Assembly (NCBI GenBank): GCA_041687335.1
Contig: JAWLCE010000005.1
Location: forward strand, 13,201 to 77,200
Direction: 5' to 3'
DNA from: Sumerlaeia bacterium
GTDB taxonomy: Bacteria > Sumerlaeota > Sumerlaeia > MVZB01
Length of the DNA stretch: 64,000 nt
A program made the position numbers and the translations under genes. Positions 4,937 to 53,212 of the stretch are shown here, piece after piece (within the stretch, counting starts at the first letter, position 1; every line of letters begins with the position of its first letter). The notes beneath the pieces were generated by a model. The model did no database searches. It worked only from the letters and a program-made list of their open reading frames with translations, and was not told where the DNA came from.

Positions 4937-4958
4937 TTTAAGTCGTCCGAAAGCGGGG

Positions 4959-6750: not shown

Positions 6751-6789
6751 CGGTGCATGCCGAGTGGGCGGTGCTTCTGTCGTCACAGC

Positions 6790-6926: not shown

Positions 6927-7082
6927 GTCACCACCGGCTAAGCTTTTGCCCGTTCGGGGGCAATGTTTTTGGTCCATTTTGGCGATCTTGGCCGCTTGGC
7001 GCTTTGGCGTGAACCATGGCAGCCATTCGCCGAAGACTCGACCGGCCACTTCGGGGGCGGCTGGGCTGGGGCATGAAAGCTT

Positions 7083-14495: not shown

Positions 14496-14891
14496 GTTCA
14501 ACCATGGCGCCCTATAGGGGAGACTTTTCCGCCTGCCATTGTGATGGCGCGGGGCGGGCGAGTCAAGAAACGGCCATTGGGAAGGACTTCGAGCCTTCAT
14601 TTTCTGTCGCCAAGACGCAGAGGAATGGCCGAATGATGCAAAGGGAGGATCATCTCCTTTCATGCAGCCCCCAGCGCACATGTCACCTGCGCACGGAAAA
14701 GCGGTCGTTTTCGATTTGGGTCTTTGTTTAGATCGAAAAATCAGAAGCATGGGGGATGGTGCGACTGCGGGAGGGATGGGCGGAGAAGGGAAAAATGCTA
14801 TCCAGATCGGCCGGGGTGCTGCCGATAAGGTAAACGAAAAGGGATCGGCGCGCGCCGGGGACCTGATCAATCCAGAACAGCGAAAGCCATC

Positions 14892-17800: not shown

Positions 17801-18599
17801 GGGCACGACGCTGGAGTCGGGGGGCGAGCTGGGTGGGCGCTTCGAGATCATCGAGGAGATCAACCGCGGCTCGATGGGGATCGTCTACAAGGCGCGCGAC
17901 AAGATATTGGATGAGATCGTGGCGATCAAGGTGCTCAATGACTTCCTCTGCGCCGACCAGGAGGCGATCGAGCGGTTCAAGCAGGAGGCGCGCTCATCGC
18001 GGCGGCTGACCCACCAGAACATCGTGCGGATCCACGACCTGTTCGACCTGGACGGCAAAAAGTTCATCTCGATGGAGTTCATCGAGGGGGACAACTTGAA
18101 GACGCTGCTGGCGCGCAACGTGACCTTCAGCGACGACATCGCGCTGACCTACCTGTTCCAGATTTGCGAGGGGCTGGCCTATGCCCACCGGCTGCATGTG
18201 GTCCACCGCGACATCAAGCCGGCCAACATCATGATCACGGCGCGCAATCAGGTGAAGATCACCGACTTTGGCATTGCCAAGCTGCTGACCGAGCACCAGA
18301 CCAAGACCGGGACGCTGATCATGGGCACGCCGCTCTACATGGCGCCTGAGCAGATCGAGGGCGGGCGGATCGACCATCGCTGCGACATCTATGCCCTGGG
18401 GATCATGCTTTGGGAGATGGTGATGGGGCACCCGCCGTTCAATGAGGGCAACATCGAGTATCAGCACGTGCACAGCCCGGTGCCCGAAATCACCCGCACG
18501 GTCAGCGAAAAGCTGCGCAAGATCATTCTGCACTGCGTGAAGAAGAGGCCGGAGGAACGATTCCAGACGGCGGAAGAGATTTTGACACGGATTGTCTGA
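14892..18599 (+). CDS. Hsp70-like ATPase / TPR-like region / Hanks-type Ser/Thr protein kinase fusion protein
   Basis: Residues 1-505 carry the Hsp70 NBD signatures (IGIDLGTTNS, DFGGGTFD, LVGGSTRIP) and an SBD-beta segment, with no helical lid. A Pro/Ala-rich linker and a helical repeat region follow. The C-terminal 256 aa (about 17829-18599) carry kinase motifs VAIK, HRDIKPAN, DFG and APE. Confidence 0.85.
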   Translation: MENSPHVIGIDLGTTNSVVAVVDSGEPNVINNQEGRSKTPSVVAFDEQGGVTVGEIALRQGATQPRRTICSVKRFIGRMHDEILDEGDLVSFELTADEAGRSAIRVDERVYLPEQISAQVLAKLKQAAEDYLGQRVGRVVLTVPAYFDDNQRQATMEAAKLAGLEVLRLLNEPTAAAMAYGLGRGGRETVAVYDFGGGTFDFSVLDIEDKTFEVLCSNGNSRLGGDDLDTALTDWLADRFQQVHGIDLREDPMTLRRLRDAAERAKCELSSAFETLVSLPFIAYVDGVPIHLEERIEREVFEELAEPYVRETIECCVRGLRQARVRKEDITRVILVGGSTRIPLVQDSVEDFFGLAPFKGINPDEIVALGAAIQGAVMNGELEEVVLLDVTPHTLGIELRGNRRSMLVEKNATIPIKVHKTFSTTEDHQTFVNIHVLQGDSDKANECRSLGRFTLSGIEDAPAGVPRIRVTFFINADGIVEISAADLASGAERSLVISHAYLNSDQRQKTQGEGRRKRRRRRAIMESSDGSGELAPVRARRESTEARRRDPAATGSAGGGATGTHVNFAMIHGDTEPQPVPRQPARSREADERQVVEAAVAGPSAPATEAADSTIGHGPRRAMIPAAAALTQTVTAPPAARGTVPAGSPPAMPTPPATPVTMPVAASAATPVAADVAPREELLAELPAELPAELAPMVEILLEGRRDENACRLYRDARAQFAEFCQQRFDQISLQLLLARLHLFAGEAESSLEVLEQLRMRPEAPTERMLAAYDEFCAQAPDSLAGRGERAELAEQAGQIERAIADLELLVEPEDADPALLARLAGLYRRALGDHSDAAIQFKLVGLHLRLRDIDAAITQLQQLVTLPDHRHRANKLLGLCFWQKGMRHLAWQKLRTLPINDEMKDILYRLADDMDLHDELLHAKYALERIYEVDIQYRDVGERLKKLSYRLELQRDGRYGSTPAPRTGLGTTLESGGELGGRFEIIEEINRGSMGIVYKARDKILDEIVAIKVLNDFLCADQEAIERFKQEARSSRRLTHQNIVRIHDLFDLDGKKFISMEFIEGDNLKTLLARNVTFSDDIALTYLFQICEGLAYAHRLHVVHRDIKPANIMITARNQVKITDFGIAKLLTEHQTKTGTLIMGTPLYMAPEQIEGGRIDHRCDIYALGIMLWEMVMGHPPFNEGNIEYQHVHSPVPEITRTVSEKLRKIILHCVKKRPEERFQTAEEILTRIV

Positions 18600-37776: not shown

Positions 37777-38841
37777 ATGTCTGAGCTGCGACAGAACATG
37801 GCGACCAAGGAATGGGTCATCATTGCGCCCGAGCGGGCGATGCGTCCCGACCAGTTCCGCCCGCCCGACACCAAGACTCAGACCCACCAGTTGCCGGCCC
37901 TGGTCAGCGATTGTCCCTTCTGCCCGGGCAACGAGCACGAGACGCTGGAGGAAGTCCTGCGCATGCCGGAGGAGGGCCCGTGGAAGCTGCGCGTCATCCC
38001 CAACAAGCATTCGGCACTTTCGCGCACCGGCGAGCGCCGCTATCACCTCGATGGCGTCCAGCGCTCGCTGACGGGGGTTGGCCACCACGAGGTGTTGATC
38101 GAGACCCCGCGCCACAACAGCACCCCCGGCCTGCAATCGCCCACGACGATCCGGCGCACGCTGGATGCCTTTCAACAGCGCGGGCGCGAGCTCTCGCAGG
38201 ACTCCCGCGTCGAACAGATCTTCTACTTCAAGAACCACGGCGTCAGCGCCGGCAGCTCGATCGTCCATTCCCACAGCCAGTTGCTGGCGTTGCCGATGGT
38301 GCCTCGCTCGACGCGGGTGCGCGTGGAGGAGATGCGCCACAGCTACGACGACCTTGGGCTCTGTCCGATCTGCCTCATGCTCGAGAACGAGCTGGCCGAC
38401 GGCCGGCGCATCATCGGGCAGAATGCAAACTTCGTCGCCTTTGTTCCCTACGCGGCCCTCTCGCCGTTTCACATGTGGCTGGTGCCGCGCCGCCACGGGC
38501 CTACTTTCCTCGACCAGATGCACCATGAACTGGACGCGCTCGCGCACCTGATGCGCGAGATCTTGGGGCGCCTCTATCATGGCCTTGGCGACCCCGCCTT
38601 CAACTACATCATCCGCAGCGCACCCCAGCGCGATTCCAGCAGCGCCTATCTGCACTGGTATGTGTCGGTCGTGCCGCGGGTCACGCGCACCGCGGGCTTT
38701 GAGCTGGGCAGCGGGATGTCGATCAATCCGACGCTACCCGAGGATAATGCCGCCTTCCTGCGCAATCAGGATCCCGGCGACGTGATCGATGACGAGACCG
38801 AGGCGACCCGCCCCGCGCCGGTCGTCCAGAATTTCCCTTGA
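37777..38841 (+). CDS. GalT-like HIT-superfamily nucleotidyltransferase (galactose-1-phosphate uridylyltransferase / ADP-glucose phosphorylase-like)
   Basis: Cys/His zinc site (CPFCPGNE) and the HIT-like catalytic histidines IVHSHSQ. ATG at 37777 (MSELRQNMATKEWVIIAPERA). Divergent from glgC. Confidence 0.8.
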   Translation: MSELRQNMATKEWVIIAPERAMRPDQFRPPDTKTQTHQLPALVSDCPFCPGNEHETLEEVLRMPEEGPWKLRVIPNKHSALSRTGERRYHLDGVQRSLTGVGHHEVLIETPRHNSTPGLQSPTTIRRTLDAFQQRGRELSQDSRVEQIFYFKNHGVSAGSSIVHSHSQLLALPMVPRSTRVRVEEMRHSYDDLGLCPICLMLENELADGRRIIGQNANFVAFVPYAALSPFHMWLVPRRHGPTFLDQMHHELDALAHLMREILGRLYHGLGDPAFNYIIRSAPQRDSSSAYLHWYVSVVPRVTRTAGFELGSGMSINPTLPEDNAAFLRNQDPGDVIDDETEATRPAPVVQNFP

Positions 38842-38858
38842 GGCGCGGGCGGAGGAAC

Positions 38859-40313
38859 ATGATGAAACTCACAGGCCCGTTCTCAGCACCGAAACGACCG
38901 GGGGCCGGCAGGTCCGGCCTTGGACTCATTGCCGCCTGGCTGGTGCTCCTGTTCGTTCAGGGCGCCACCGGAGCCCAACCCCAATGGCCCAACCTCGCTC
39001 CCGCCACCGAAAGGGCACTGGCCGGGGGGGAGGCGGCCGACGTCATCATTCGGCTGGCCCCCGACGCCGCCCTGCCGGCCGGAGCCGCGCTGGCCGAAGC
39101 CCAGGACCATCTGCTGGCCTCCCTTGCCGAGGCCCCCGGCTGGACGTTGCGTCACCGCTATGCCTCGATCCCCTACGTTACTGGCCAAATCACCCCCCAG
39201 GCACTGGCTGCGCTGGCGGGCCACCCCGCCGTTGAATGGGTCGGCCCCGACCTGCGCGTTAAGGGCGCGCTGGTCGAAAGCACCGCCGCCATTCGCGCCG
39301 ACAGCGCCCGGACGCGTTTTCAGCTTTCGGGCACCGGCGTTGCCGTCGGCCTGATCGACACCGGCATCGACCTCAATCATCCCGACCTGGCGGGGGCGCT
39401 GCTGGCCGGACGCCGCTTCATCAAGGACGATCCCACCGCCGCCACCGTCATTCAGGATGACCATGGCCACGGCACGCACCTGGCCGGCATCCTGACCTCC
39501 GACGCCCTTGGGCCCGCACCCCTCGGGATCGCCCCCGGCTGCCGGCTGGTGGTGGTCAAGGCCCTCGATGCCAATAACCAAGGCTGGGCAAGCGACATCA
39601 TCGCCGCCATTGATTGGATCGTCAGCAACCGCGCCCTCTTCCCGACGCTCAAGTTCATCAACCTGAGCATCGTCTTCGACACCAACCGCACCACGCTCTG
39701 CCCCTGCGACTCGCTGGCCCTGCTCGACGCCAACCCCGACCGGCGCAGCTCCTACGGGGCCTTCATCGAGGCGGTGGGGCGGGCGCGTGATGCCGGCATC
39801 CTGATTGTCGCCCCGAGCGGCAACGGCGGCGGTCAGGGCCTCAATCCACCCTCCTGCTTCGAGAACGTCGTTGCGGTGGGGGCTGCCTTCGACGGCGCCT
39901 ACACGCGCGCCCCAACCACCGGCACCTACTATACCCAGAGCCAAAGCGCCTACTTTGCCGATGTCCACGATGAGTTTACCCAGATCCGACGGCTGACGGG
40001 CTTCAGCAACTATGGCGACTGCCTGGCCCTGCTGGCGCCCGGCTACAGCATCCGCTCGACGATGCTGGGCGGCACCACCCGCAACAGCTTCGGCACCTCG
40101 ATGGCGGCCGCGCACGTGACGGCGGCGCTGGCGCTGCTGCAGGAACGGGCCCCGGCTTTGACCGCCGGCCAGTTGGTCGGGGTGCTGCGCCAGAGCGGCC
40201 GCCCCGTGCCCTCGCCGGCCAATCCGGCCATCAGCTATATGCTGATCGATGTCGATGCCGCCGTCATCCTGGCGCGCCGCACCAGCGCCCAAAGCTGGAC
40301 GATGTTCAAATAA
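38859..40313 (+). CDS. S8 family subtilisin-like serine peptidase, secreted
   Basis: Catalytic triad contexts DTGID (Asp), HGTHLAG (His) and GTSMAAAHV (Ser). Signal peptide present. ATG at 38859, 4-nt overlap with the upstream gene. Confidence 0.85.
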   Translation: MMKLTGPFSAPKRPGAGRSGLGLIAAWLVLLFVQGATGAQPQWPNLAPATERALAGGEAADVIIRLAPDAALPAGAALAEAQDHLLASLAEAPGWTLRHRYASIPYVTGQITPQALAALAGHPAVEWVGPDLRVKGALVESTAAIRADSARTRFQLSGTGVAVGLIDTGIDLNHPDLAGALLAGRRFIKDDPTAATVIQDDHGHGTHLAGILTSDALGPAPLGIAPGCRLVVVKALDANNQGWASDIIAAIDWIVSNRALFPTLKFINLSIVFDTNRTTLCPCDSLALLDANPDRRSSYGAFIEAVGRARDAGILIVAPSGNGGGQGLNPPSCFENVVAVGAAFDGAYTRAPTTGTYYTQSQSAYFADVHDEFTQIRRLTGFSNYGDCLALLAPGYSIRSTMLGGTTRNSFGTSMAAAHVTAALALLQERAPALTAGQLVGVLRQSGRPVPSPANPAISYMLIDVDAAVILARRTSAQSWTMFK

Positions 40314-40477
40314 CATTGCCGTCATTGCACTTGGCGATCCCGCTCCGTCATCTTCTCGGCTGTGCCTCTGCCTGCTGGCATTGTTTAGGTCCTGCCCGCC
40401 GGGTCGGTCTATACTGAACGCTGGCCAAACAAATGGCCTCTCGCGGCTGTCCAATACCAAGGGAAGAGGCCTTTCCA

Positions 40478-40978
40478 ATGAAGCTCTATCTGTTGCGCCA
40501 CGCCGAGGCGGTCGACATCGATGAGGCTGGCGGCGACGATGCGGCTCGCAAGCTGACCGACGCCGGCGAGCAGTCGGCCCGGCGCGCCGCCCGCGGCATG
40601 AAGCGACTGTCGATCCTGCCGGACAAGATTCTGACCAGTCCACTCGTTCGGGCGGCCCGCACCGCCGAATTGACGGCGCGCGAGCTGGGAATCACCAAGC
40701 GCGTGCGCGAGAACGAGCGCCTGGCCTCGGGCGTCCCGGTCGAGGCCATGGCCGAGCTGATCGGCTCACGCAGCGAGGAATCACTCATGCTGGTTGGCCA
40801 CAACCCGGATTTTGAGCTGCTGCTGGCGTGGTTGATATCCCCGGCGGGCGGCGCTCGCGTCAATCTCAAGAAGGGGGCGCTGGCGCTGGTTCAGGTCGAG
40901 CTGCCCCTGCAGCCCGGGGCCGGCATGCTGCGCTGGCTGATGACGCCCGGCCAACTGGCCCAGCTGGACCGAATTTGA
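40478..40978 (+). CDS. sixA: phosphohistidine phosphatase SixA-like (histidine phosphatase superfamily branch 1)
   Basis: RHAEA catalytic Arg-His motif right after the ATG (MKLYLLRHAEAV), plus a later histidine (LVGHNPD). RBS gggaagagg. Confidence 0.75.
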   Translation: MKLYLLRHAEAVDIDEAGGDDAARKLTDAGEQSARRAARGMKRLSILPDKILTSPLVRAARTAELTARELGITKRVRENERLASGVPVEAMAELIGSRSEESLMLVGHNPDFELLLAWLISPAGGARVNLKKGALALVQVELPLQPGAGMLRWLMTPGQLAQLDRI

Positions 40979-41064
40979 ATTGCAAAAAATGGCCGCCAAA
41001 GTTTGAATAGCGGGCGACAATTTGTCTGGGGGCAAGCGTCTTGGAATTCAGCGATTTCGTGACC

Positions 41065-41679
41065 ATGCTGATCGTGCTGGTGATTTTCTTCGCACCGGCG
41101 ATCAAGCAGATACTTGATAAGCTCAACGAAAGCAAGGGCTCGGCCCCCGAGGTCAGCGAGGCTGACCGTCGGATCCAGGAGGACCTGCGCCGGCGCCTGG
41201 GCGGCGATCAGCCCGAGGCGCCGACTCGCCCGCCCGTGCGCCCCGTGGTGATCCAGCGCCAGGGCGAGCGGCCGGTCGTGGTGACGCCACAGCCGGTTGC
41301 GCCCCCCGAGCCGCCGCGCCGGCCCGTCCCGCGTCAGGCGGCTGCCCCGCCGCCCCCGCAGCGGCGTCAGGCCCCGCTGCCTCCCCAGCCGCGTGAGGCG
41401 CGCCCGGAACCTGATCGCAGCTGGCAAACGCCCCCGCAACCGGCCGCGGCCCAGCTCGCCCACCCGCCATCCGTGCCCACCGTGCCGCGCGAACAATTGC
41501 CCGAGGTGGCCCGCGACGTGATGGTCACCCAGCGGGTGGAACCGGTCCGGACCCGGCGCAAGCGCAACCGCCGGCTGGAGCTGAACCCCACCACACTGGC
41601 GCGGGTGGCGCTGGTCAATGAAATCTGGCAGCCGCCGCTGGCGCTGCGCAAGGATCTGCCCTGGGAACAGAAACTTTGA
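41065..41679 (+). CDS. hypothetical proline-rich membrane-anchored protein
   Basis: N-terminal TM (MLIVLVIFFAPAI), then a 100-aa Pro/Arg/Gln-rich tract and a short basic C-terminal segment. Could instead start at the TTG at 41041. Confidence 0.5.
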   Translation: MLIVLVIFFAPAIKQILDKLNESKGSAPEVSEADRRIQEDLRRRLGGDQPEAPTRPPVRPVVIQRQGERPVVVTPQPVAPPEPPRRPVPRQAAAPPPPQRRQAPLPPQPREARPEPDRSWQTPPQPAAAQLAHPPSVPTVPREQLPEVARDVMVTQRVEPVRTRRKRNRRLELNPTTLARVALVNEIWQPPLALRKDLPWEQKL

Positions 41680-41692
41680 ATCGACATCAAAG

Positions 41693-43462
41693 ATGATGAT
41701 CAATCAGGCTGACCCGCCCTCAAGCCCGCTGGCCGAACAACCGGCCCGGTTGGTCGTGCTGTTGCGCCCGCTCGAGCCGGCGGAGGGGCTGGAGCCGGTC
41801 TATCGGATCGATCGCTTTCCCGCCACGATCGGCCGCCACGAGCTCAACAGCATTGAAATCGCCAATGAGGCGATTTCGCGCTACCACGCCCGGCTGGAGC
41901 GCGTCGGCAGCCAATTCCGCCTGCTCGACCTGCGTTCCTCCAATGGGACCTGGCTCAACGACCGCCGCATCCAGGTGGCGATGATCGACGACAGCGACAT
42001 CGTCTCCTTCGGCAGCGTCAAGTTCATCGTCGCGTTCGAGACCAGCGATGGCCTGCCCATCAGCGGCGGCTCGCCGGGAGGGGTTGAGCGCGACGGCACA
42101 TCCGAGATTCACCTCATCCAGCAGGCCGACCATGCCGAGACAATTCACTCCCAGCCCGCCGACCAGCGCCCGCGCCTGCTGGAACTGGAGGAGGCTCTCC
42201 CCGACGAGCCGGCGCTGGCCGAATCGCGCCGCCGCCTGATCGGGCTGAGCCGTCTGCAGGGGATCCTGCACGCGGCCGCCGGCGATGAGGCGCGCATGAT
42301 GAAGGCCGTGCTCGAGCTGCTTTTTGATGTGCTGCCCGTCAGCCGCGGGGCGATCCTGACGCGCGATATCCTGGACGCTCAGTTGTTTCGGCCGGTCGCG
42401 GTCCGCTCCCGCGCGCGCGGGGGGGGCGACAGCCGGATTGGTATCAGCCGCGGCGTCCTGCAGCGCTGCCTGCGGGAGAAGGTCGCCCTGCTCACACGCG
42501 ACGCCGGTGGCGACCTGCACCTGCGCCCCGACGCCGAGGTCCCCAGCCCATTGCGTTCGGTCATCTGCGCCCCGCTCATCAGCGGCGCCCATGTGCTGGG
42601 CTTCTGCCACCTCGAGACGCTCCAGCCCGAGCGCGCCTTCACGAATGATGACTTGACCTATCTGGTCGGCATCTGCGGCCAGACCTCGGTCCACCTCCAC
42701 AATCTGCGGATGACCCGCGAGAAGATCCAGTCCGAGCGGATGGCGGCCATCGGCCAGACGATCACCGGCATGGCCCACAACATCAAGAACATCCTGCTGC
42801 TGAGCCAGGGCGGCATCGAGATGATGGAAAAATCGATCAACCGCCGCAACTACGAGACCCTCGAGGAAACCTGGGGGCTGGTCCGGCGCGGGCTGGACCG
42901 GATCAACAGCCTGGTCCAGGACATGCTTGAGTATTCGCGCCCGCGCCACGTCGAGCGCGAGCAGATGAACGTCAACAACCTGTTGGCCGAACTGGCGCTG
43001 ACCTTTGCCGATGAGCTGCGCCGCCGCGGCGTCCACATCGAGCTCGACCCCGATCCCGAAGTTCCGGAATTGCCCCTCGACCGGCGCGGTTTGGAGAAGG
43101 CGCTCGTCAACCTGATCGTGAACGCGATCGAGGCCGCCGAGTCACAGGATGGCTGGATCGCCCTCTCCACCCGTATGCTCGAGGACGGCAACCTGGTCAT
43201 TCATGTGCGCGACGGTGGACCGGGCATCCCACGCGAGCTGCTCTCGCGGGTTTTCATCCCCTTCTTCACCACCAAGGGCTCCAAGGGTTCGGGGTTGGGC
43301 CTGCCGATTACTCGAAAAATCATCGAGGACATGGGCGGACGCATCGAGGTCCACTCCGAGGAAGGCCGCGAGACCTGTTTCACGATCACGCTCAATGTCG
43401 GCCCCGATGTCGCCCGCCTCGGTTCCTCCACCGCCGGGCAGCTCGACGAGGAACAGCCATGA
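41693..43462 (+). CDS. FHA domain / GAF domain / histidine kinase (HisKA + HATPase_c) sensor
   Basis: FHA block (RIDRFPATIGRHELNSIEI...SSNGTWLN), a central GAF-like region, an H-box (ITGMAHNIKN), and the N, G1 and G2 boxes (VNLIVNAIEA, DGGPGIP, GSGLGL). ATG at 41693. Confidence 0.85.
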   Translation: MMINQADPPSSPLAEQPARLVVLLRPLEPAEGLEPVYRIDRFPATIGRHELNSIEIANEAISRYHARLERVGSQFRLLDLRSSNGTWLNDRRIQVAMIDDSDIVSFGSVKFIVAFETSDGLPISGGSPGGVERDGTSEIHLIQQADHAETIHSQPADQRPRLLELEEALPDEPALAESRRRLIGLSRLQGILHAAAGDEARMMKAVLELLFDVLPVSRGAILTRDILDAQLFRPVAVRSRARGGGDSRIGISRGVLQRCLREKVALLTRDAGGDLHLRPDAEVPSPLRSVICAPLISGAHVLGFCHLETLQPERAFTNDDLTYLVGICGQTSVHLHNLRMTREKIQSERMAAIGQTITGMAHNIKNILLLSQGGIEMMEKSINRRNYETLEETWGLVRRGLDRINSLVQDMLEYSRPRHVEREQMNVNNLLAELALTFADELRRRGVHIELDPDPEVPELPLDRRGLEKALVNLIVNAIEAAESQDGWIALSTRMLEDGNLVIHVRDGGPGIPRELLSRVFIPFFTTKGSKGSGLGLPITRKIIEDMGGRIEVHSEEGRETCFTITLNVGPDVARLGSSTAGQLDEEQP

Positions 43463-45036
43463 TCCGACCCCTCCTGGTCCTGACCCTGCTGGCGATCATG
43501 ATCGCGCCCGTGCGGGGCGCCGAGTCCCCGCCTTCCCTGGACGCGGCTGCGCCGACCACCCCCACCCTGGCCGCCGAGGGCCCGGGGATTCACCTCTTTC
43601 CGCTGCTCTACCGCGGGGTGGACTGGGAGCCCGGTGTCGTCGAATGGTCGATCTTCGGGCCGCTGCTGGGCGCGCGCCGCGACCTGGCCACGACCGACAC
43701 ATTCTACGCCGCGCGCCCGCTGATGTCGGCCGGCACCAACGCCGATGGGCGGTTCCTCGACCTGCTGTTTCCGCTGGGCGGTCGCCGTCTGCGCCAGGAG
43801 CGCGCCGACGAGCTCGAGCGGCGCTGGGCGATGCCGATTTATTTCCACAGCCGCACCGAAAATCCTGTCTCCATGCGCGAGCGCAGCGTGTTCTTCCCGT
43901 TGGTCTATCGCGGCAGCCGGCGCACCGGCGATCAGACCGCCGGCTATTTCATCTTTCTGCCGTTCTATTGGAATGTGGAGGAGGGTGCGAGCTACTATTT
44001 CCCGCTGTTCCACCCCAACCCCGGGCGCTCACTGGTTTTCTGGCCGCTCTATGGCCATTTCCGCCGCGCCTTCGGCGCCGATGAAATCCGCTTCTGGGCC
44101 TGGCCCGGCTACGTTGAGACCATCGATGCCCCCAATCGCACCCGGACGATCCTCTGGCCGTTCTTCAGCCGCACCAGCGGCCAGACCCTGAACGGCTGGC
44201 GTGTGTGGCCGCTGGCGGCCCGTTACGAGCGAGCCGGCGGCGGTCGGCGCGACTGGTACCTGTGGCCGTTGGGCTGGCACGTGCGGCGCCCCGCCCAGGG
44301 CAACCGCTCCGAGCTGGCGCTCGACGCCTTCCTGCCGTTCTACCTCAAGATGAGCCAGGGTGAAATGAATGCGCGCTACTACGCCGTCTGGGGGGAATCC
44401 ATCCGCCCCACCCAGCGCACCAGCGCCTGGCTCTGGCCGCTCTACACACACACCGTCAGCCTGAGCCCTGAGTTCACCCGCCACCGGGTGCTGCTGTTTT
44501 TGGTCGATGTGCTGCGCGGTGAGGGGCCGCGCCGCACAATCGTCTTTCCCTTCTACGGCCGGCGCGAGGACGAGCGCCAACTGCGCCGCTTCGTGCTCTT
44601 CCCGTTCTATTCGGACCGCCGCCAGCAACTCGCCGACGGTGGCGTCTACACCAGCCGCTACCTGTTGCCATTCGTCGTCTCACAGCGCTGGGTGGATGCC
44701 GACGACCGTCCGCTGCGCAGCCGCTTCACGCTGGCGCCCTTCTACCGCGACATTCGCAATGCCGACGGCTCCAGCTACCTGAGCTGGCCGCACCTGCTGC
44801 CCTACACCGAGCAGGCGGGCATGGATCGCAACTGGGCGCCGCTGTGGACGATCTACTCGCGCCGCAACGACGGCGCCGGCACGGTCGAGCGTCGCGTGCT
44901 GGGCAAGCTCTGGCGCTCGCGCACCGTCGAGGGCGTCGGCACCGAACGCGAGTTCAACTTTTTGCTCGGCCGCTGGCGCCGCCACCTGGACGGCGGCGCC
45001 AGCTTCTCGCTTTTGGGATTCGAGCTTGCCGGTTGA
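43459..45036 (+). CDS. secreted repeat protein with about 24 tandem 20-aa aromatic-Pro repeats (WPLY/FPFY/LPFY cores)
   Basis: ATGA overlap with the kinase stop. Signal peptide (MIRPLLVLTLLAIMIAPVRGA). Recurring motif hydrophobic-W/F-P-L/F-Y-basic roughly every 20 residues, with strong GC3 bias throughout. Confidence 0.65.
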   Translation: MIRPLLVLTLLAIMIAPVRGAESPPSLDAAAPTTPTLAAEGPGIHLFPLLYRGVDWEPGVVEWSIFGPLLGARRDLATTDTFYAARPLMSAGTNADGRFLDLLFPLGGRRLRQERADELERRWAMPIYFHSRTENPVSMRERSVFFPLVYRGSRRTGDQTAGYFIFLPFYWNVEEGASYYFPLFHPNPGRSLVFWPLYGHFRRAFGADEIRFWAWPGYVETIDAPNRTRTILWPFFSRTSGQTLNGWRVWPLAARYERAGGGRRDWYLWPLGWHVRRPAQGNRSELALDAFLPFYLKMSQGEMNARYYAVWGESIRPTQRTSAWLWPLYTHTVSLSPEFTRHRVLLFLVDVLRGEGPRRTIVFPFYGRREDERQLRRFVLFPFYSDRRQQLADGGVYTSRYLLPFVVSQRWVDADDRPLRSRFTLAPFYRDIRNADGSSYLSWPHLLPYTEQAGMDRNWAPLWTIYSRRNDGAGTVERRVLGKLWRSRTVEGVGTEREFNFLLGRWRRHLDGGASFSLLGFELAG

Positions 45037-45048: not shown

Positions 45049-46983
45049 TCACGGCTCCAGCGGGGGGATCGGCCAGCTCCAGATGTTGGTGAGGGTGGAG
45101 AAGTAGAGCCGGCCATTGAGCTCCGCCAGCCCGGTGGTGGCGCGAGTCGGCAGGCTGACCAGCTTTTTGAACTCCCGGCTGCCCGGCGTGATGCGCCCGA
45201 TCGCATCGCGGAACAGGCAATAAATCATCCCGTCGGAGCCGACCAGCATCGCGCGCGGGGCCTGGTTGCCCGCCACCTCGCCGACGCCCTCCAGTTCCCG
45301 CTGATGGACCACTTCGCGGCGCGCCGGGTCGAAGACGAAATAGAGCGCCTTGCCCGAGCGGTTGGTCAGGCCATGGACCAGCCCGTCCGAGGCCACGACC
45401 AGGTCGCGCACGGCCGGCACGGAGGGACTGAACGGCGCATGCCAGACCACCTCGCGCCGGTCAGGGTCGAATAGATAAAGCTCAGCTTCCTTGGCCACGG
45501 CCTGGCCGCCGGTGCCGGCCACGATCGTCGTCCCGCCCACCACCAGCCCGTCGGGCAGTTGCGCCAGCGCCACCGTGCTGTGGTGGCGGATCAACTGCTC
45601 GTGGGTCAGCAGGTGGTGCTCCTCGCTCTCGAGGTCATAGATCAGCATGCCGCCGCCGGTCAGCCCGTAATCGGGTGTTCCGACCATGATGACCCGGCGC
45701 CCATCGGCCAGCGCCAGCAGGGCATGGGGCCGATTGATCGCCGAGCTGCGCTTGTTCAGCCGGCGCGGGTTCTGTTGATCGCCCGTGCCGCCGATCGGCT
45801 TGGCCGTATCATAGTCGTAGAGGTATCCGCCGGAATATTGCGCGGCGATGATGTGGCCGCGCTGGAGCGCCAGCGCGTTGAGGTGCCCGCCCATGTGCTG
45901 GCCCGGCTGATGGCTCAACGTGCCGGTGACGGTGTCGAGTGAAATCACCCGCAGCGGCAGGCCGGTGGAACCATAAATGGTCCGGCCGTCGGGTCCGGCA
46001 ATGATCGACTTCACATAGGCCCCATCGCTGTGGTAATCGAATTCCACGCGACGGGGTTTTCCGGTGTCGGGTTCCTCGAGCATCAGGAACTTTTCGGTGA
46101 TGTTAAACTGGGTGATCCGCGGGCCTTTGGCCAGCGCCACCCGCTGGATTCCCTGCGCGCCTTCAAGCATCGGGACTCGAGCCACCGGCGGCTTCTCGAT
46201 TTCGCGCCGCTCGCCCCGATACAGCTCGAGCCATGGGCTGTCCGAGGTCGGCCGCGCGTAGACGCGTCCGTTGCTGCCGCGGAAAACCTCGGGCCATGCC
46301 TGACGGCGCTCCGACTCGTCAAGCAACAGTGTGAACTGGCCCGTGTCCGGGTTGCGCGCCACCAGCTGGCTGGCCGTCGCCCCGATCCCAGCATAGACCC
46401 AGCCGGCGTCATCGCAGGCAAGCCCCCGTGGATATTGCGGCCAGCTCTCCTTGTTCATCGCGCCGTGATCGATCAGCTCGCGCGTATCAGGGTTGAATGA
46501 ATACAGGTGCGCTTTTGGATAGACCCCCGCCCAGATGATGCCGTTGTCATCCTCGGTCATGCGCATCGCGAGGTTGTCGCTGACGTGCTGCCAGAAGGTG
46601 AAGCGCCGCTCGGCGGGATCAAACTCCAAAAATGTGCGGCCGAAGAGCGTGTAGAGCCGGTTGCGACTCGAGAAGATGGCCGCGAACGGGGCATCCCCAC
46701 GCGGCGGACCCGGCAGGTCCATCTGCTCGAGCGCCCCCGTCAGCGGATCGATCAGCAGCAGATACTTGGTGGAAAAGGTCTCGGCCGGATAAGTCATCAG
46801 CAGCGGCCGGCCGTCCTTGTCATAGGAGGCAAAGGTGAAGCGATTGTTGAAGATCGGCGCCGCCGGCCCGTGATCGATCAACCCTTGGGTGTCGGCCTCC
46901 CTGGCATTGGACGCCGGCGCGGCGCCGACCCCCCCCGCCAGCATGACCCAGAACATGGCCGCCCACAGGATGCGTCCGCTCAT
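45049..46983 (-). CDS. secreted hypothetical protein, probable beta-propeller
   Basis: ATG at 46983 with a signal peptide (MSGRILWAAMFWVMLAGGVGAAPA). Beta-propeller-like composition with repeated DG.xY / GG.LY segments. 644 aa. Confidence 0.6.
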   Translation of the reverse strand: MSGRILWAAMFWVMLAGGVGAAPASNAREADTQGLIDHGPAAPIFNNRFTFASYDKDGRPLLMTYPAETFSTKYLLLIDPLTGALEQMDLPGPPRGDAPFAAIFSSRNRLYTLFGRTFLEFDPAERRFTFWQHVSDNLAMRMTEDDNGIIWAGVYPKAHLYSFNPDTRELIDHGAMNKESWPQYPRGLACDDAGWVYAGIGATASQLVARNPDTGQFTLLLDESERRQAWPEVFRGSNGRVYARPTSDSPWLELYRGERREIEKPPVARVPMLEGAQGIQRVALAKGPRITQFNITEKFLMLEEPDTGKPRRVEFDYHSDGAYVKSIIAGPDGRTIYGSTGLPLRVISLDTVTGTLSHQPGQHMGGHLNALALQRGHIIAAQYSGGYLYDYDTAKPIGGTGDQQNPRRLNKRSSAINRPHALLALADGRRVIMVGTPDYGLTGGGMLIYDLESEEHHLLTHEQLIRHHSTVALAQLPDGLVVGGTTIVAGTGGQAVAKEAELYLFDPDRREVVWHAPFSPSVPAVRDLVVASDGLVHGLTNRSGKALYFVFDPARREVVHQRELEGVGEVAGNQAPRAMLVGSDGMIYCLFRDAIGRITPGSREFKKLVSLPTRATTGLAELNGRLYFSTLTNIWSWPIPPLEP

Positions 46984-47051
46984 GATGAAAATCCTCCGCT
47001 GGAATTGATCTTGATCCAATAGAAAATCGATGAAAATTTCTCGCCGTCCGA

Positions 47052-47903: not shown

Positions 47904-48707
47904 TTATCTTTGCGCTTCCTCTGCGTCCTCCGCTTCGTCGCGCAGGACCTCCCAATCCACCCGGCTCAGGTTGCCGCGCAGGACCGTCATCAGCTGCTCC
48001 CAGACCCACCACAACACCCGGTTGTCGATCTGGGGGTTGAAGTCCAGGTTAAGTAGTTCGTTGCGCAGCGGCACGCGGATGATGAGTCGTTCGCGCGTCA
48101 GCTCGCCCTCGACGTTGACCTCATTGAACGGGATCATGAGCTCATTGGGCCAGCGCTGGTCGAGCACGCTATCGACGTAATCGCCCGCCAGAGCGCCGGC
48201 ATGCTGGTTGGCCAGCAGGTCCTTGATCAGGCCTCGGCTGAGGAAGACCGTGCCCGGCGCGCCGTGCGCCGCAATTGCGATGCGGCTCCACTCGCCCTCG
48301 CCGAATTCCAGCCGCACCCGCCCCGAAACCTGCGCCCGCACCTCGCGCGCCCGCGGCAACTGAAAAAACGCCATCGCCTCGCTCAGCTCGACCCGCCCCA
48401 GCGTGATGCTGGTGGCCAGCGACGCGGAGCGCCCGGCGAGCACGCGCCCCTCCCCCGCCACGCGCACGCGCCCATCCCACAGGTTCAGGTCCAGCCAGTC
48501 CAGTTGCCACCGGCTCTCCTCGACCAGGATCGTGGCCGCCGACCGATCAAATAAAATCTGGTGGCGGATGCTCAGCGCCAGCGGTCGGCTGGTGGCGGGG
48601 TCAAGCCAGGGCAGCAGCGGCTGTTCCTCGGCGGCCGCGGCCACGCGCGGCCAGCCCAGTGCCATCAGAAGAATCAACAGGAGTAAGATGGATGACCGTG
48701 GGCCGGG
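47904..48707 (-). CDS. hypothetical secreted protein (start uncertain)
   Basis: The track ORF extends to 48953, but that part overlaps a better small ORF in another frame. A TTG at 48707 gives a signal-peptide-like N-terminus (SSILLLLILLMALGWPRVAAAAEE). Ends with an acidic tail. Confidence 0.4.
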   Translation of the reverse strand, partial: PGPRSSILLLLILLMALGWPRVAAAAEEQPLLPWLDPATSRPLALSIRHQILFDRSAATILVEESRWQLDWLDLNLWDGRVRVAGEGRVLAGRSASLATSITLGRVELSEAMAFFQLPRAREVRAQVSGRVRLEFGEGEWSRIAIAAHGAPGTVFLSRGLIKDLLANQHAGALAGDYVDSVLDQRWPNELMIPFNEVNVEGELTRERLIIRVPLRNELLNLDFNPQIDNRVLWWVWEQLMTVLRGNLSRVDWEVLRDEAEDAEEAQR

Positions 48708-48778
48708 CGGAACCAATCGTCCTGATGATTCCGCCCAGCCCCCGGCCGTGAGCCTGCGAGGCGGGGATAATGAAGACC

Positions 48779-48997
48779 TCAGCGCCGGGTGAAGCCGGGC
48801 CCCTGCCGGACCAGCTGCTGGGCATTGCGGGCCTTGCTTTGCCAGTCGAGCCGATAAAGCGCACACGGGAAAGATTTCATGTAATGCGGTTTGTCGGCGT
48901 GTTTGCAGTAGACCTTCTCCGGACGCGAGGCCAACGTGTGGTAGAACATGCAATCAGTGCGGGTGCACTGGACTTCAATCACTCTGCCTTCTTGCAC
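48779..48997 (-). CDS. small Cys4 protein (putative zinc-ribbon), hypothetical
   Basis: 72 aa. GTG start preceded by aaggatgtgcc (SD aagga). Strong GC3 bias. Cys at positions 11, 16, 33 and 47 (VQCTRTDC...YCKHADKPHYMKSFPCALY). Confidence 0.45.
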   Translation of the reverse strand: MQEGRVIEVQCTRTDCMFYHTLASRPEKVYCKHADKPHYMKSFPCALYRLDWQSKARNAQQLVRQGPGFTRR

Positions 48998-49129: not shown

Positions 49130-52100
49130 TTACCGCCGCCCATTCACGCCGCGGTTGCCGTTATGGGCTTGATTTCCATTTTTGCCATTTCGGCCGTTGA
49201 TCTGGTGGTTGATGCGGCCGGGCAGCTCCAGCGCCGTGTCGAGCGGTGTGATCGGGACGAGGGTGGGGTCGGAGAGCGTCCCGCCGACGCGCACGCTGAT
49301 CACCTGACCCACCAGCCGATTGAAGATGTCCAGCGCACCGCCGATCAGCGGCACGTCGCGCGCGAACTGAAGGAACAGCGCCCGCAGTTGGAGGTCCAGG
49401 TTGCCGTCGAGCGTCACAGCCCCCGACACCCGCATATCGACCACCGGGTTCTGCATGTGGATTCCTTCGCTGGTGATGCTGCGCTCGACAAGCTGGAACG
49501 GCCCCTGGATGCGCGAGAAGACAATGTCCTCAAAGATCGGCAGTCGCAGCAGCCCCCCCAGTGCGTTGAAAATCCGGTTGGCGACGAAGCGGCTCTCATC
49601 GATCCTCGCGGTGCCCTCACCCCACATCAGCAGCGGATGCTCATCGCCGCCCAGCGCTATGGTCACGTCCACCCGCCCGCTCAGATTGCCCGAGAACATG
49701 CCGCCCGGCCGCGCCTGCCCCGTCATCGATTCGATGACCGGCCGTATCTCGACATTGAGCACCTCGCTGTTGATGTGCAGGCGCCGGTTGAAGAAGGTGC
49801 CGTTCAGGTCCACCGTCCCCCCATCGACCCGCACCTGCGAAAGATACCAGCGCAGCATCCCCGGCTGGCGGCGTTTGTAAGCATCGAACTGCAGCATCGC
49901 GTCCACGTTACTGAAGACGACGTTGCGGTATTCCCCCGTGTCGGTGCGGAACATCCCGCGCACGCTGAGGCTCGGCGTCAGCGCGGGGTTGAATTTCAGG
50001 TCGTCGGGCCACTCAGCCGGCGGCGGGTCTCCCGGCCCGCGCCAGCGGTCGATCCACTCATCAATCGAGAAGTGATCGCCGCTGACGTCGAAGGCGATCG
50101 TCGGGGGCTGGCCGTCGGGCCGGTCCCAGAGGATGTCAAAGGTCGAGCGGACGTTGACGGAGCCGGTCCCGGGCGCCACACCGATCGGCTGGGGCGTCCA
50201 AAGCCGCCCCTTCTCGTAGAGTGCCAGCCCCGTCAGCCCGCGCAGCGGCGTCGGCATGCGCAGCAGGGTCAGCTCGGCATTGTCCAGCCGCAGCCGGCCG
50301 CTGTAATCATCGACCCACTCCGCCTTCAGTTGCTCGCCGGGGGCTTCCTGTTCCAGCACCGCCGTCAGGTAGTCGATCATGCCCGGCCAGGTCTGGGGCG
50401 GGATAAACCCCTCGCGCGGGCGCAGCTGATGGCGGTGGTCGATTGACGCCAGGCCGCCGACGCGGAAGCGCTCCAAGCCATGGGGCACCCGGCGCTGCAT
50501 TTCGCGCAACGCCCCTGCCAGCTGGATGGCGACCTCGCCCCCGCCCGGGCGTAGCGTGCCGCTGGTCATGAAGTCAAGTTCCCCGAAGCGGCCGCTGGTC
50601 GGCGCCAGCCTCAGGCTTTCCTGATCGAAAAGCAGTTCGACGCGGGGCGAGGTGAGCGGCCCGCCCACGCGCTGGACGCTGAAGCTGGTCTCCAGGTCGT
50701 TGATCACGACGCGGATCTCCTGGTCACCCGCGCGCCACTGCTCGGGCCGGCCGCGCAGGCGCGTCTCGATCAGCGCCTGGCCACGAGCATATTCAACCTG
50801 CTCGGGCAGCTCAAACAGCTCCCGCTCGCGCGCCTGCTCCAGCGCATTGGCCAGTGAGGTCTCCAGTTGCAGGTTCAGGTCCAGCAGCGGTTCTTGCCAG
50901 GGCAGGCGCCGGCCTTCGATCCCGCCATCGACCAGGAACTCGCCCTCCAGCGTCCGGCCGCGAACCTGGTCGAGCATGAGCGTGCGCCCGGACCAGATGG
51001 CCGTGCCCGACAGCTCACTCACCGGCGCGGGCAGCCGCTGATGGTCCACATTCCCATTCTCGACACGCAGCGTCAGCTCCAAGTCATCGGGTGGTGAGCC
51101 TTCGTCGGTCGCCCGCTCCATGGATTCGATGCTGATGCGGCCCTCGAGCCGGAGCCGTTCGGCACCCAGCTGGATCGGCCCCTGGACCTGCTCGGCCTGC
51201 TCCAGCTCGAGGCGGGTGGCAAAATCGCGCACGTCCAGCTTGAGCTGCAACGGCTCCTGGCGCCAACGGTCCAGCCGCATCTGTTCGGTGCCGAGCGTCA
51301 GCACCGCATCGCCCTCGATCGGTGGCAGGTCCAGCTCGAGCTCGCCCTCGGGATCGAGCCGCTGCGCGATGCGCCGGGCGTGCTCGACCAGCACCGGCAC
51401 CGGCCCCGCCGCCCGCGCCGTCGCCGTCAGCGTCTGGCTGGTCCACAGCTCCGGCCCACCGAGCACATGCGCCTCCAGGGTGAGGCTCGTTCCACCCAGC
51501 CGCGCGCTTGGCACGTGGAGCCGCGCCTCACGGCTGGTGAACTCCAGCTCTCCCCTCAGGTCCGTCAACGGTTCGGGCAGGGCCGGGTGCTCGACCTCCG
51601 CCCGCCGGAGCCGCAGCCGCCCCTCCGCCCGGACGCGCTCCATCGCCTGCTCCATGACGAGCGGGTCGCTCAGCCGCAGTGTGCCGCTGCCGACAATGTC
51701 GCCGGTCAACTGAAGTCCCTCCAGGGCCTGCTCGGTAGTCTGCCCACTGGGGGTCTCGAGTTCGCCCAAATCGCCCGCCGTGTGCCAGTCCAGCTCGACC
51801 TGGCCGACATGCCCCGCCAGCAGATCACCGGTGGCAGTCCCCTCCAAGCGGACGGGCAATCCGGCGATGACCCCATTCAGGTCCTCCAGGGTCAGCGTGT
51901 CGGTCGTCAGGCTCACGCGGGCCGAGATATCACGAATCGGCCCGGCCAGCTCGGGAATCTTCCAGGCCACGCCTTCCATCGTATAGGTCGCCTGCAACGA
52001 CGTGGGATGGGTGGTCAACTGGTCGCCGGCGACACTGCCGGTCAGGGTGGCGACGCCCTCGCCGGGACGGGCGGCGACGCCGTGGGGCAGCAGCCAGTCG

Positions 52101-53212
52101 CCCATTGCCGCCAGCCCTTCATCGCGCAGCTCGAAACGCTCGAGCGATGCCGAATATGGAAACGGCGCCTCGATTTCCATCTGCCCATGCATGAGCATGT
52201 CGGCATTGGGGCTGCTCATCGTCAGTCGTTCGATCTTGGCCAGGCGGGCCTCCTGGTCGAGCGTGGCCACCCATCGCAGGTCAATCCGGTCGACCTCATG
52301 AAGGGTCGCGTCCTGATCGTCGTAGATGCGAGTGTTGTCCAGCAGCAGCCGGCCCTCGGTGTGCCAGTTCAGCCCGTCGCGCCGGAGGCGTCCCTCCAGC
52401 CGCGCCGGCCGGGCCTGAATCTCCGCCGGCAGCAACCCCGGCATCAGCCGGCCCGTGTCGAGGGCGCCGATGCGCATCGTCCACTGGCCGCGCTGCTGCC
52501 CCTGCTCGAGGTCCAGCTCCGCCTGGAGCTGAAAATCGCGCCGGCCGTCGCCCCGCCAGTCGCCGGTGGCCTCGACCCGCCGCGGGCGGGGCTGACCCTC
52601 AAAATCCACCTCGATAGCCATATCATGGATACTGGCGACCGTGTGCGTGGTGCCGGTGTCGTCGGGCTCCAGCCAGCGCAGCCGCACCGGCGAGATGCGC
52701 AGCATCTCGAGCGCCACGCTGCGCTCCCCCCGCTCCTCGTCCTGGTTTGCCTGAATGATTTCGATGATCCGCGGCCAAGGCTCCATCAGCTCGGGCCGCC
52801 CCTCGCGCAGCGTCACGTCAATATGGAACGGGCCGACCAGCTCGATCGCCTGCATGACGTAGGGCCGGCCGCCGAAGATCAGCCGCGGCAACGAGCTGTC
52901 CACCCGCACCGCCTCGGCCTCGAGCAGCCGCTCCCCCGTCTCCGGGTCGGTGAGCACCGGGCGCTCCACATCGAGCCGCGCCCGCCCCAGCCGCAGCGTC
53001 GCCTGGTCGAATTCCAGCCCCAGCCCAGTTGCCTCTCCAAAACGCTCGCTCAGCAGCGCATCCAGCCGCTCGTGGCGGATCGGAATGAACAGGAGCACGA
53101 CCAGCGCCACGACCAACAAACCCAGCAGGCCAGCCGCAATCAGCAGCCAGCGCCGGCGGCGCGGGGGGGTCTCCTCCCGTTCCTGTTCGTCCTTTTCCGC
53201 CTCGATGCCCAT
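49130..53212 (-). CDS. AsmA/TamB-like giant envelope protein (N-terminal membrane anchor, DUF3971-like)
   Basis: 1360 aa. N-terminal TM (WLLIAAGLLGLLVVALVVLLFIPI), followed by a long beta-rich repetitive body typical of AsmA-like lipid-transfer proteins. Confidence 0.7.
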   Translation of the reverse strand: MGIEAEKDEQEREETPPRRRRWLLIAAGLLGLLVVALVVLLFIPIRHERLDALLSERFGEATGLGLEFDQATLRLGRARLDVERPVLTDPETGERLLEAEAVRVDSSLPRLIFGGRPYVMQAIELVGPFHIDVTLREGRPELMEPWPRIIEIIQANQDEERGERSVALEMLRISPVRLRWLEPDDTGTTHTVASIHDMAIEVDFEGQPRPRRVEATGDWRGDGRRDFQLQAELDLEQGQQRGQWTMRIGALDTGRLMPGLLPAEIQARPARLEGRLRRDGLNWHTEGRLLLDNTRIYDDQDATLHEVDRIDLRWVATLDQEARLAKIERLTMSSPNADMLMHGQMEIEAPFPYSASLERFELRDEGLAAMGDWLLPHGVAARPGEGVATLTGSVAGDQLTTHPTSLQATYTMEGVAWKIPELAGPIRDISARVSLTTDTLTLEDLNGVIAGLPVRLEGTATGDLLAGHVGQVELDWHTAGDLGELETPSGQTTEQALEGLQLTGDIVGSGTLRLSDPLVMEQAMERVRAEGRLRLRRAEVEHPALPEPLTDLRGELEFTSREARLHVPSARLGGTSLTLEAHVLGGPELWTSQTLTATARAAGPVPVLVEHARRIAQRLDPEGELELDLPPIEGDAVLTLGTEQMRLDRWRQEPLQLKLDVRDFATRLELEQAEQVQGPIQLGAERLRLEGRISIESMERATDEGSPPDDLELTLRVENGNVDHQRLPAPVSELSGTAIWSGRTLMLDQVRGRTLEGEFLVDGGIEGRRLPWQEPLLDLNLQLETSLANALEQARERELFELPEQVEYARGQALIETRLRGRPEQWRAGDQEIRVVINDLETSFSVQRVGGPLTSPRVELLFDQESLRLAPTSGRFGELDFMTSGTLRPGGGEVAIQLAGALREMQRRVPHGLERFRVGGLASIDHRHQLRPREGFIPPQTWPGMIDYLTAVLEQEAPGEQLKAEWVDDYSGRLRLDNAELTLLRMPTPLRGLTGLALYEKGRLWTPQPIGVAPGTGSVNVRSTFDILWDRPDGQPPTIAFDVSGDHFSIDEWIDRWRGPGDPPPAEWPDDLKFNPALTPSLSVRGMFRTDTGEYRNVVFSNVDAMLQFDAYKRRQPGMLRWYLSQVRVDGGTVDLNGTFFNRRLHINSEVLNVEIRPVIESMTGQARPGGMFSGNLSGRVDVTIALGGDEHPLLMWGEGTARIDESRFVANRIFNALGGLLRLPIFEDIVFSRIQGPFQLVERSITSEGIHMQNPVVDMRVSGAVTLDGNLDLQLRALFLQFARDVPLIGGALDIFNRLVGQVISVRVGGTLSDPTLVPITPLDTALELPGRINHQINGRNGKNGNQAHNGNRGVNGRR

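Follow-up and report, generated by a model that had tools for sequence, protein, structure and literature searches.

An exported β-hairpin repeat protein beside an FHA-GAF histidine kinase in a Sumerlaeia bacterium, and its relatives in lipid-transporter operons

In a stretch of 64,000 nucleotides from a Sumerlaeia bacterium (assembly GCA_041687335.1, contig JAWLCE010000005.1, positions 13,201 to 77,200; hereafter the window), a gene for a 525-aa repeat protein (43459-45036, + strand, stop codon at 45034-45036) directly follows a gene for a histidine kinase. What kind of protein is this, and what would an exported array of repeats be doing next to such a kinase? Sequence comparison places it, as an outlying member, in a large family that has no name and most of whose members are encoded among the genes of inner-membrane lipid transporters. 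What would be new here is an envelope lipid-transport accessory whose fold has no solved counterpart and which, at this locus, is coupled to a kinase, the function being read from the gene context of the relatives.

A family of predicted β-meander proteins

The open reading frame (ORF) at 43459-45036 has a strong coding signature, with G+C contents of 0.65, 0.52 and 0.87 at the first, second and third codon positions. Its first 20 codons (43459-43518, + strand) specify a Sec signal peptide read from the sequence, MIRPLLVLTLLAIMIAPVRG, ending before AE and typical of signal peptidase I (SPase-I) substrates, in agreement with the initial annotation. The AlphaFold model gives this region as a helix (residues 4-15) followed by a low-confidence, disordered linker (17-33). 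The mature protein is 16% aromatic, has an isoelectric point (pI) of about 10 and contains no cysteine, and no transmembrane helix was found in it. That the gene product is real, structured, rich in β-strands and repetitive had been argued from the letters alone, and this is confirmed by the coding signature, the conserved prolines and a confident AlphaFold2 model. The ORF thus encodes a genuine protein that is exported and whose β-hairpin array is conserved.

In the protein we count 16 instances of the pattern [hydrophobic]2-P-[LFY]-x; over 2,000 residue shuffles the average was 0.8 and no shuffle exceeded 5. Repeat units were counted by anchoring on the turns of the AlphaFold model. This gave 22 clear units, besides three or four C-terminal hairpins without the motif, so that the earlier count of about 24 tandem units was a fair one; the strict length of 20 residues was not, since the spacing is 19.7 ± 4.0 aa and ranges from 14 to 34. 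The anchor position is Pro in 20 of the 22 units, and positions -2, -1, +1 and +2 are hydrophobic in 91-100% of them. Basic residues, which had been described as following each unit, are indeed enriched at +4, +6 and +7 (50%, 36% and 32%, against a background of 15%). The unit consensus is ..R-R-R-x-Φ-[LF]-[FW]-P-[LF]-Y-G-R-x-R-R.., where Φ is a hydrophobic residue. In family alignments of 46 and 148 sequences the core prolines are invariant or nearly so, which argues that the periodicity is conserved and not a product of chance.

The AlphaFold2 model, built from the 46-sequence alignment, is all-β, with a predicted local distance difference test (pLDDT) of 91.1 and a predicted template modelling score (pTM) of 0.79, and consists of about 50 strands of 5-8 residues joined by turns of 2-5 residues. 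A model of P0018, a relative whose gene lies in an operon of the Mla lipid transporter, has the same architecture (pLDDT 93.7, pTM 0.82). Most of the window protein is taken up by the main β-hairpin array (residues 44-443, 43588-44787, + strand), delimited by DSSP of the model, turn mapping, the unit consensus and coevolution; it has about 43 short strands and a ΦΦ-P-ΦΦ motif at every second turn. The turns alternate strictly in the model, every second one being Φ-P-Φ and those between being rich in Gly, Asp and Asn. Hydrophobicity is found within three residues on either side of the Pro turn, on both faces, and the far strand ends are Arg-rich and polar, a layout which suggests that the meander has an aromatic-proline stripe along one edge and charge along the opposite one.

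The array is followed by a short helical insert containing GMDRNWAPLW (44788-44853, + strand; model helices 453-458 and 460-463). In the form G-x-[DE]-R-N-W-A-P-L-W this is the most conserved non-repeat motif of the family, conserved enough to seed a genome scan, and the P0018 model carries the same helical element at 391-401. Four C-terminal hairpins without the Pro motif (residues 466-523, 44854-45027, + strand), assigned by DSSP and aligned to the C-terminus of the family, complete the protein. As modelled, the whole is predicted to fold as one continuous antiparallel β-meander of about 25 hairpins, in which the aromatic-proline turns would all line one edge of the sheet and the Gly/Asp/Asn turns, together with the Arg-rich strand ends, the other.

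Hairpin pairing is also supported by coevolution, independently of AlphaFold. Mean-field direct coupling analysis (DCA) of 308 family sequences (effective number, Meff, 278) gave as its top couplings the hairpin partners 367-378, 228-237, 254-266, 209-222 and 353-360. When couplings were pooled by strand offset, the value was 0.77 for adjacent strands and fell to a baseline of 0.34 by an offset of about 5; a secondary peak, periodic stacking or a blade period was not seen in these pooled data. A decay without a second peak fits a continuous meander rather than propeller blades or a solenoid. The strong pair 67-483 hints at closure between the N- and C-terminal parts, but is not significant as a block (p ≈ 0.26), and its covariation may be a clade signature.

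A word-indexed search returned 46 homologues of 440-560 aa, all described as hypothetical and none with Pfam domains, and phmmer aligned the window protein to Mla-linked members with E-values from 1e-19 to 1e-4. With an exhaustive profile search the family grew to 3,350 cluster representatives (clustering at 50% identity) at E ≤ 1e-3, of which 1,371 were at E ≤ 1e-30; nearly all have 450-550 aa. Conservation of the ORF among homologues, on which the initial annotation had made the reality of the protein depend, is therefore widespread, and the turn prolines are kept. Most members have SPase-I-type signals or a hydrophobic N-terminus, and a clear subset has lipoboxes (...LAGGC, ...LVGC, ...LLGC). 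The median pI is 9.3, the aromatic content is 17%, and some members end in aromatic runs (…SFFFF, …YLKIF). There is also a longer class of 800-980 aa with no other recognisable domain; ten long or odd members (600-1,767 aa) gave no Pfam domains, hence no fusion clue to function. The window protein itself shows full-length collinearity with the family, the GMDRNWAPLW helix and the invariant turn prolines.

The protein had been said to lie outside the named families, and the profile searches agree. No Pfam, NCBIfam or PDB sequence match was obtained for the window protein even at E ≤ 1-10; ten central family members had no Pfam match at E ≤ 1, and a 148-sequence profile searched against the PDB was also empty. 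Foldseek searches of the PDB with the models of the window protein and P0018, and a search of BFVD, gave no global fold match, the template modelling (TM) score normalised to the query (TMq) being at most 0.20 in the PDB and the best TM 0.33 in BFVD. The window protein belongs to no named family and has no global match to any solved fold, and is a candidate for a new fold class.

An all-β, exported protein with many aromatic residues could be an integral outer-membrane β-barrel, porin-like or a lipid channel of the LptD/TGD4 kind. The aromatic C-terminal runs of some members resemble the β-signal of outer-membrane proteins, and TGD4 offers an established precedent. However, strands of 5-8 residues are too short to span a membrane, for which at least about 9-10 are needed, and the PDB barrels are unmatched (TMq 0.11 to LptD and 0.10 to VDAC). 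Moreover, the hydrophobic residues gather, on both faces, round a single turn edge instead of alternating along the strands, part of this basic family consists of lipoproteins, and the window protein, whose last residues are ...GFELAG, lacks an aromatic residue at its end. All this considered, we regard a barrel as highly improbable. The basic, aromatic-edged sheet, the lipoprotein variants and the short strands fit better with a peripheral membrane or lipid-interacting protein.

Lipid-transporter genes beside the relatives

The genomic setting of the family was surveyed by a scan of one genome per species, seeded with a 10-sequence alignment, which gave 196 relatives, the best 80 of which were kept. 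The ORFs of these 80 loci were probed with MlaE, MlaF, MlaD and kinase sequences, and later with MMPL. According to the labels in the record titles, about 51 of the 80 are from Verrucomicrobiota, 10 from Desulfuromonadales or a 'delta proteobacterium', 4 each from Sumerlaeota and Victivallales, 3 from Dadabacteria and 2 from Kiritimatiellae; a few are labelled Bifidobacteriaceae, Pedobacter or Methylomirabilota.

Three distant members (P0018, P0020 and P0046) have genes in operons with MlaE, MlaF or MlaD, and the MlaD proteins near them are about 340-360 aa long, with a helical-needle region. The same association runs through the scan. Outside the clade of the window, mlaE lies immediately downstream on the same strand in 64 of the 69 loci with at least 1 kb of downstream sequence, typically with a 4-bp gap or with an overlap, and mlaE, mlaF and mlaD are all present in 57 of the 65 loci with at least 3.5 kb downstream. 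In four of the five exceptions lacking mlaE, a gene for an MMPL-family resistance-nodulation-division (RND) transporter (915-947 aa) is placed directly upstream of the family gene. This MMPL gene is directly upstream in 50 verrucomicrobial loci and is retained in four loci without mla. The order in Verrucomicrobiota is MMPL, family gene, mlaE, mlaF, mlaD, with 4-bp spacings on either side of the family gene in dozens of species; Desulfuromonadales, Dadabacteria and other lineages have the family gene followed by mlaEFD, without MMPL. In Verrucomicrobiota, Desulfuromonadales, Dadabacteria, Victivallales and Kiritimatiellae, operons for inner-membrane lipid transporters carry the family gene as a constant additional member.

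A third type of linkage was found in the long class. The gene of P0218 (L091, 7001-9673, 890 aa) has a 4-bp overlap with the end of a gene (3567-7004) for a 1,145-aa fusion of major facilitator superfamily (MFS), acyltransferase and AMP-binding domains, which has the LplT-Aas-type architecture of lysophospholipid transport and re-acylation. With the Mla, MMPL and LplT-Aas-type linkages taken together, the family recurs among genes for envelope-lipid transport that are themselves of unrelated types.

Two further observations concern these loci. In about 50 verrucomicrobial loci (L017-L086; for example L030, 5077-7872, and L044, 1405-4182) two different inner-membrane lipid transporters share one apparent operon, and the MMPL protein of L044 also matches the sterol-sensing domain profile. 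The labels of the metagenome-assembled genomes (MAGs) assigned to Bifidobacteriaceae (L020, L075, L080, L085), Methylomirabilota (L059) and Pedobacter (L069) are probably binning errors. Among those probed, L075 and L085 have 56-70% identity to verrucomicrobial members and are among the nearest neighbours of these, and L059 has about 70%. The same upstream MMPL gene is found in all of these but L069; L020, L075 and L085 have mlaE, mlaF and mlaD downstream, and the short contig of L080 keeps mlaE.

As the likeliest reading, at about an even chance, we regard the repeat protein as an accessory to lipid trafficking in the envelope, placed in the periplasm or close to the outer membrane, whose gene has in the window been relocated next to a kinase. 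Under such a scheme the family protein would be free, or lipid-anchored in the lipoprotein members, and its aromatic and basic edge or face might attach it to the outer membrane at the inner leaflet, or to the far end of a long MlaD without a barrel. It would in this way supply the outer-membrane-side function that is given elsewhere by MlaA and MlaC, by PqiC or by the β-barrel of MlaD.

The kinase-linked clade of the window

The gene directly upstream of the repeat protein (41618-43462, + strand, possibly starting instead at the MM at 41693) encodes a histidine kinase with, in Pfam, FHA (E = 1.2e-14), GAF_2 (1e-07), HisKA (3.6e-06) and HATPase_c (6.5e-26) domains. No transmembrane segment was found in it, and from its sequence the kinase appears to be cytoplasmic. 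Its stop codon overlaps the start of the repeat-protein gene in an ATGA (43459-43462, + strand, reading ...CAGCCATGATCCGACC...), an arrangement which suggests that the two genes are translationally coupled.

A kinase of this architecture is encoded directly upstream in all the close relatives examined whose upstream sequence is intact (P0004, P0005, P0006, P0007, P0009, L008 and L010), and the other neighbours of these genes all vary between loci. The kinase-linked proteins form a monophyletic, long-branched clade of 18 sequences (bootstrap 46/50), inside which the tree places no Mla-linked member. The co-occurrence with FHA-type kinases that had been asked about is therefore real, but confined to this one small clade, the prevailing setting of the family being mlaEFD, MMPL and, in one long member, LplT-Aas. 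The nearest genome relatives of the window protein are from Candidatus Sumerlaeota MAGs, at about 33% identity.

Proteins of the clade measure 524-560 aa, whereas the median for the rest of the family is about 497 aa. A profile of the clade aligned by hhalign to the Mla-linked profile, made purely from members outside the clade, gave a probability of 100% and E = 4.9e-73 over 446 collinear columns, interrupted by two hairpin insertions specific to the clade. The first, at about residues 163-192 (43945-44034, + strand, FIFLPFYWNVEEGASYYFPLFHPNPGRSLV), adds roughly 1.5 hairpins and appears as a gap in the Mla-linked profile and as an insert against the family hidden Markov model; the second, at about residues 286-302 (44314-44364, + strand, ALDAFLPFYLKMSQGEM), was located by the same hhalign comparison and by hmmalign.

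These features raise the question of whether the clade has kept the function of its relatives. A changed function, as an envelope structural or signalling component tied to the FHA-GAF kinase pathway (such as a scaffold in the periplasm, or the output of a Ser/Thr-kinase, FHA and His-kinase network), would account for a pairing that is strict and clade-wide while other neighbours vary, for the long branch, the two insertions and the longer C-terminus of a monophyletic group, and for the lack of a transporter near the gene, both in the window and at the Sumerlaeota loci. At the latter the kinase is moreover preceded by a PEGA-type lipoprotein, and a large Ser/Thr kinase gene is just downstream in one of them. 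Nevertheless the hallmarks of the family are kept (invariant turn prolines, RNWAPLW helix, full-length collinearity), the kinase lacks a transmembrane segment and so has no apparent direct sensing link to an exported protein, and what is conserved of the module includes neither a response regulator nor another output gene. We consider a change of function possible but somewhat doubtful.

Several points weigh against a lipid-trafficking role. The 64-kb window contains no Mla or MMPL genes and the repeat-protein gene adjoins no lipid transporter; the clade, long-branched and with insertions, may have changed function; and the tight coupling of a cytoplasmic kinase to an exported protein is left unexplained. 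Elsewhere in the family, the locus of the long-class P0204 shows no obvious lipid context, and the long-range DCA pairs are at noise level and not significant. The nearest structural analogue, MORN, has itself a disputed lipid binding and is not relied on for a lipid function, and the proposed lipid-related function is read from gene neighbourhood.

If lipid trafficking is nonetheless the function, the gene would, in the clade of the window, have moved out of the transporter operon, acquired the two hairpin insertions and been coupled to the FHA-GAF kinase, which would probably provide co-expression or regulation with no direct contact with the exported protein. Since all family hallmarks are retained, service to a transporter encoded elsewhere has a modest edge over a new role tied to the kinase, two possibilities that the data cannot separate. 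Were it true, the coupling in this clade would link envelope-lipid handling to a His-kinase pathway dependent on Ser/Thr phosphorylation. Should the link with lipid transport fail, the family would still be a widespread one of unusual architecture, with its function unassigned.

Other genes near the kinase deserve mention. Two genes upstream of it, after an S8 subtilase gene (38838-40313), is a gene for a SixA-like histidine phosphatase (His_Phos_1, E = 2e-10; 40433-40978, + strand), which may act as a phosphohistidine phosphatase in the pathway of the kinase. A 212-aa ORF (41041-41679, + strand) abuts the kinase start and encodes one N-terminal transmembrane segment and a long proline-rich region; it was rejected as part of a conserved module, being unrelated to the PEGA-type lipoprotein of 126-134 aa found at that position in the kinase-linked loci of Sumerlaeota. 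In one of these loci the gene directly downstream of the repeat-protein gene (L005, 9853-14721) encodes a Ser/Thr protein kinase of 1,622 aa that also has TPR repeats, and this enzyme could plausibly generate the phospho-Thr that the FHA domain of the histidine kinase would bind.

On the opposite strand, a gene for a 656-aa secreted protein (45049-47019, - strand), for which Pfam gave only Reg_prop at E = 0.39, runs towards the repeat-protein gene, and only 12 nt separate their stop codons. This gap holds no terminator-like site; the nearest one (45146-45159) is inside the convergent gene. Some 4 kb from the repeat-protein gene, also on the opposite strand, a 1,360-aa ORF (49130-53212, - strand) has weak, sub-threshold matches to YhdP (E = 1.9e-8), DUF748 and T2SSN and is on these grounds AsmA/YhdP-like, another class of intermembrane lipid-bridge protein. 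Just downstream of it is a 349-aa ORF without a Pfam match (47904-48953, - strand), and this pairing is not conserved in the other kinase-linked loci. Farther away, a 1,619-aa ORF (11748-16607, - strand) matching PF10712 ('NAD-GH'), a GT4 glycosyltransferase and PMT_2 overlaps a 1,235-aa ORF (14892-18599, + strand); one of the two, or the N-terminal part of the 1,619-aa ORF, may be a high-GC antisense artefact.

Comparison with known systems

Literature searches covering MlaD/MlaE in Verrucomicrobia, MCE operons with uncharacterised partners, FHA-GAF kinases and LA_1737 gave no description of this β-hairpin family. The only named profile with any signal was NCBIfam NF047486, the C-terminal domain of the LA_1737 family of Leptospira. 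It was sub-threshold in four of ten Mla-linked members (E = 7e-5 to 0.04), with scores of 14-23 bits, 22.7 in the best member, against a curated cutoff of 60 bits, and the window protein had no match to it. The Mla-linked members may share a hairpin-repeat motif with LA_1737, a family that is itself uncharacterised.

The best Foldseek probabilities were to generic hairpin arrays, namely teneurin YD shells, MORN proteins, engineered single-layer OspA sheets and the CPAP G-box. MORN arrays (TbMORN1, PDB 6t68, and Pandoravirus) resemble the window protein in having tandem β-hairpins of about 20-23 residues in a continuous antiparallel sheet, with local Foldseek probabilities of 0.98-1.0. They differ in having their own motif, YxGxWxxGxxxGxG, where the window protein has its ΦΦ-P-ΦΦ turn, and in being mostly cytosolic, whereas the window protein is bacterial and exported. 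MORN membership (PF02493) was rejected, with no Pfam match at E ≤ 1 for the window protein and ten central members, and superposition gave at best a TM of 0.32-0.33 with a root mean square deviation of 7.8-10.6 Å over about 230-250 columns, so that only the local hairpin geometry is alike. The lipid binding of MORN proteins is disputed (PMC7725318).

YD/Rhs shells (teneurin, Tc toxins) are likewise very long β-meanders of hairpin repeats of about 20 residues, and teneurins gave full-length Foldseek alignments with probabilities of 0.9-0.96. In the window protein, however, the strands are much shorter, the gene context is unlike and there is no Rhs core or toxin domain. Membership in this group was rejected, there being no Pfam match, a TMq of 0.13-0.16 to teneurin shells and an array that fills the whole protein without an extra C-terminal domain. 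OspA with its engineered extensions and CPAP G-box/TCP10 share the meander of short strands and tight turns and are the top local matches of the P0018 model (3cka, probability 1.0; 4bxr, TM normalised to the target 0.33-0.34). These proteins are small (180-315 aa), non-homologous and functionally unrelated, without a conserved Pro-turn edge. β-Propellers (PQQ/BamB, WD40, YWTD, Kelch) were also rejected, with TM ≤ 0.14 to BamB, LRP6, AztD and WD40 and no Pfam propeller repeat.

Because teneurin YD shells, MORN proteins, the CPAP G-box and OspA act mainly as scaffolds or shells, by analogy the repeat protein might be a protein-protein scaffold, surface adhesin or shell of the MORN or YD/Rhs kind, its proximity to transporters reflecting shared envelope regulation only. 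The likeness is nevertheless one of local hairpin geometry (TM ≤ 0.2-0.33), with no Pfam match to MORN, RHS or YD at E ≤ 1, and the neighbours include no toxin, VgrG/T6SS or adhesin-type genes. In addition, a place between MMPL and mlaEFD with 4-bp spacings, kept in several phyla, is difficult to account for unless the genes are functionally tied. We hold a scaffold or shell to be unlikely.

A further comparison is that with the partners of MCE transporters. MlaA is α-helical, MlaC α/β and PqiC a small lipoprotein, while TGD4 and the C-terminus of some MlaD proteins are barrels; TGD4 is the β-barrel partner of the MlaEFD-like TGD1/2/3 system of chloroplasts. Identity with MlaA (PF04333), MlaC (PF05494) or a PqiC-type protein was rejected, no Pfam or NCBIfam match being obtained at E ≤ 1.

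MlaEFD is ancestral and nearly universal in diderms, and MlaABC is mostly proteobacterial (PMC10665443). In the Planctomycetes-Verrucomicrobia-Chlamydiae (PVC) group the MlaD proteins are without the C-terminal β-barrel that is believed to extend to the outer membrane, and MlaA and MlaC are absent too (PMC10665443). As MlaABC and the MlaD barrel are both missing there, the outer-membrane end of the pathway is unexplained in exactly those lineages in which the family gene is fixed in the operon. We tentatively suggest that the family might be the missing periplasmic or outer-membrane-side part of 'minimal' MlaEFD and MMPL systems in the PVC group, Desulfuromonadales, Dadabacteria and relatives, with a fold that has no solved representative, and that the clade of the window might be a kinase-coupled version of it. 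Lipid movement between the membranes of diderms is unresolved outside Proteobacteria, and the family offers a concrete candidate for a missing component.

Set beside MlaA, MlaC, PqiC, the β-barrel of the long MlaD of Veillonella and TGD4, the family differs in having no similarity of sequence or fold to any of them, in having a copy in the window that is not beside mla, and in a role assigned by gene context only. It resembles them in being exported and encoded in the same operon as MlaE, MlaF and MlaD, and this in lineages that have neither MlaABC nor the MlaD barrel.

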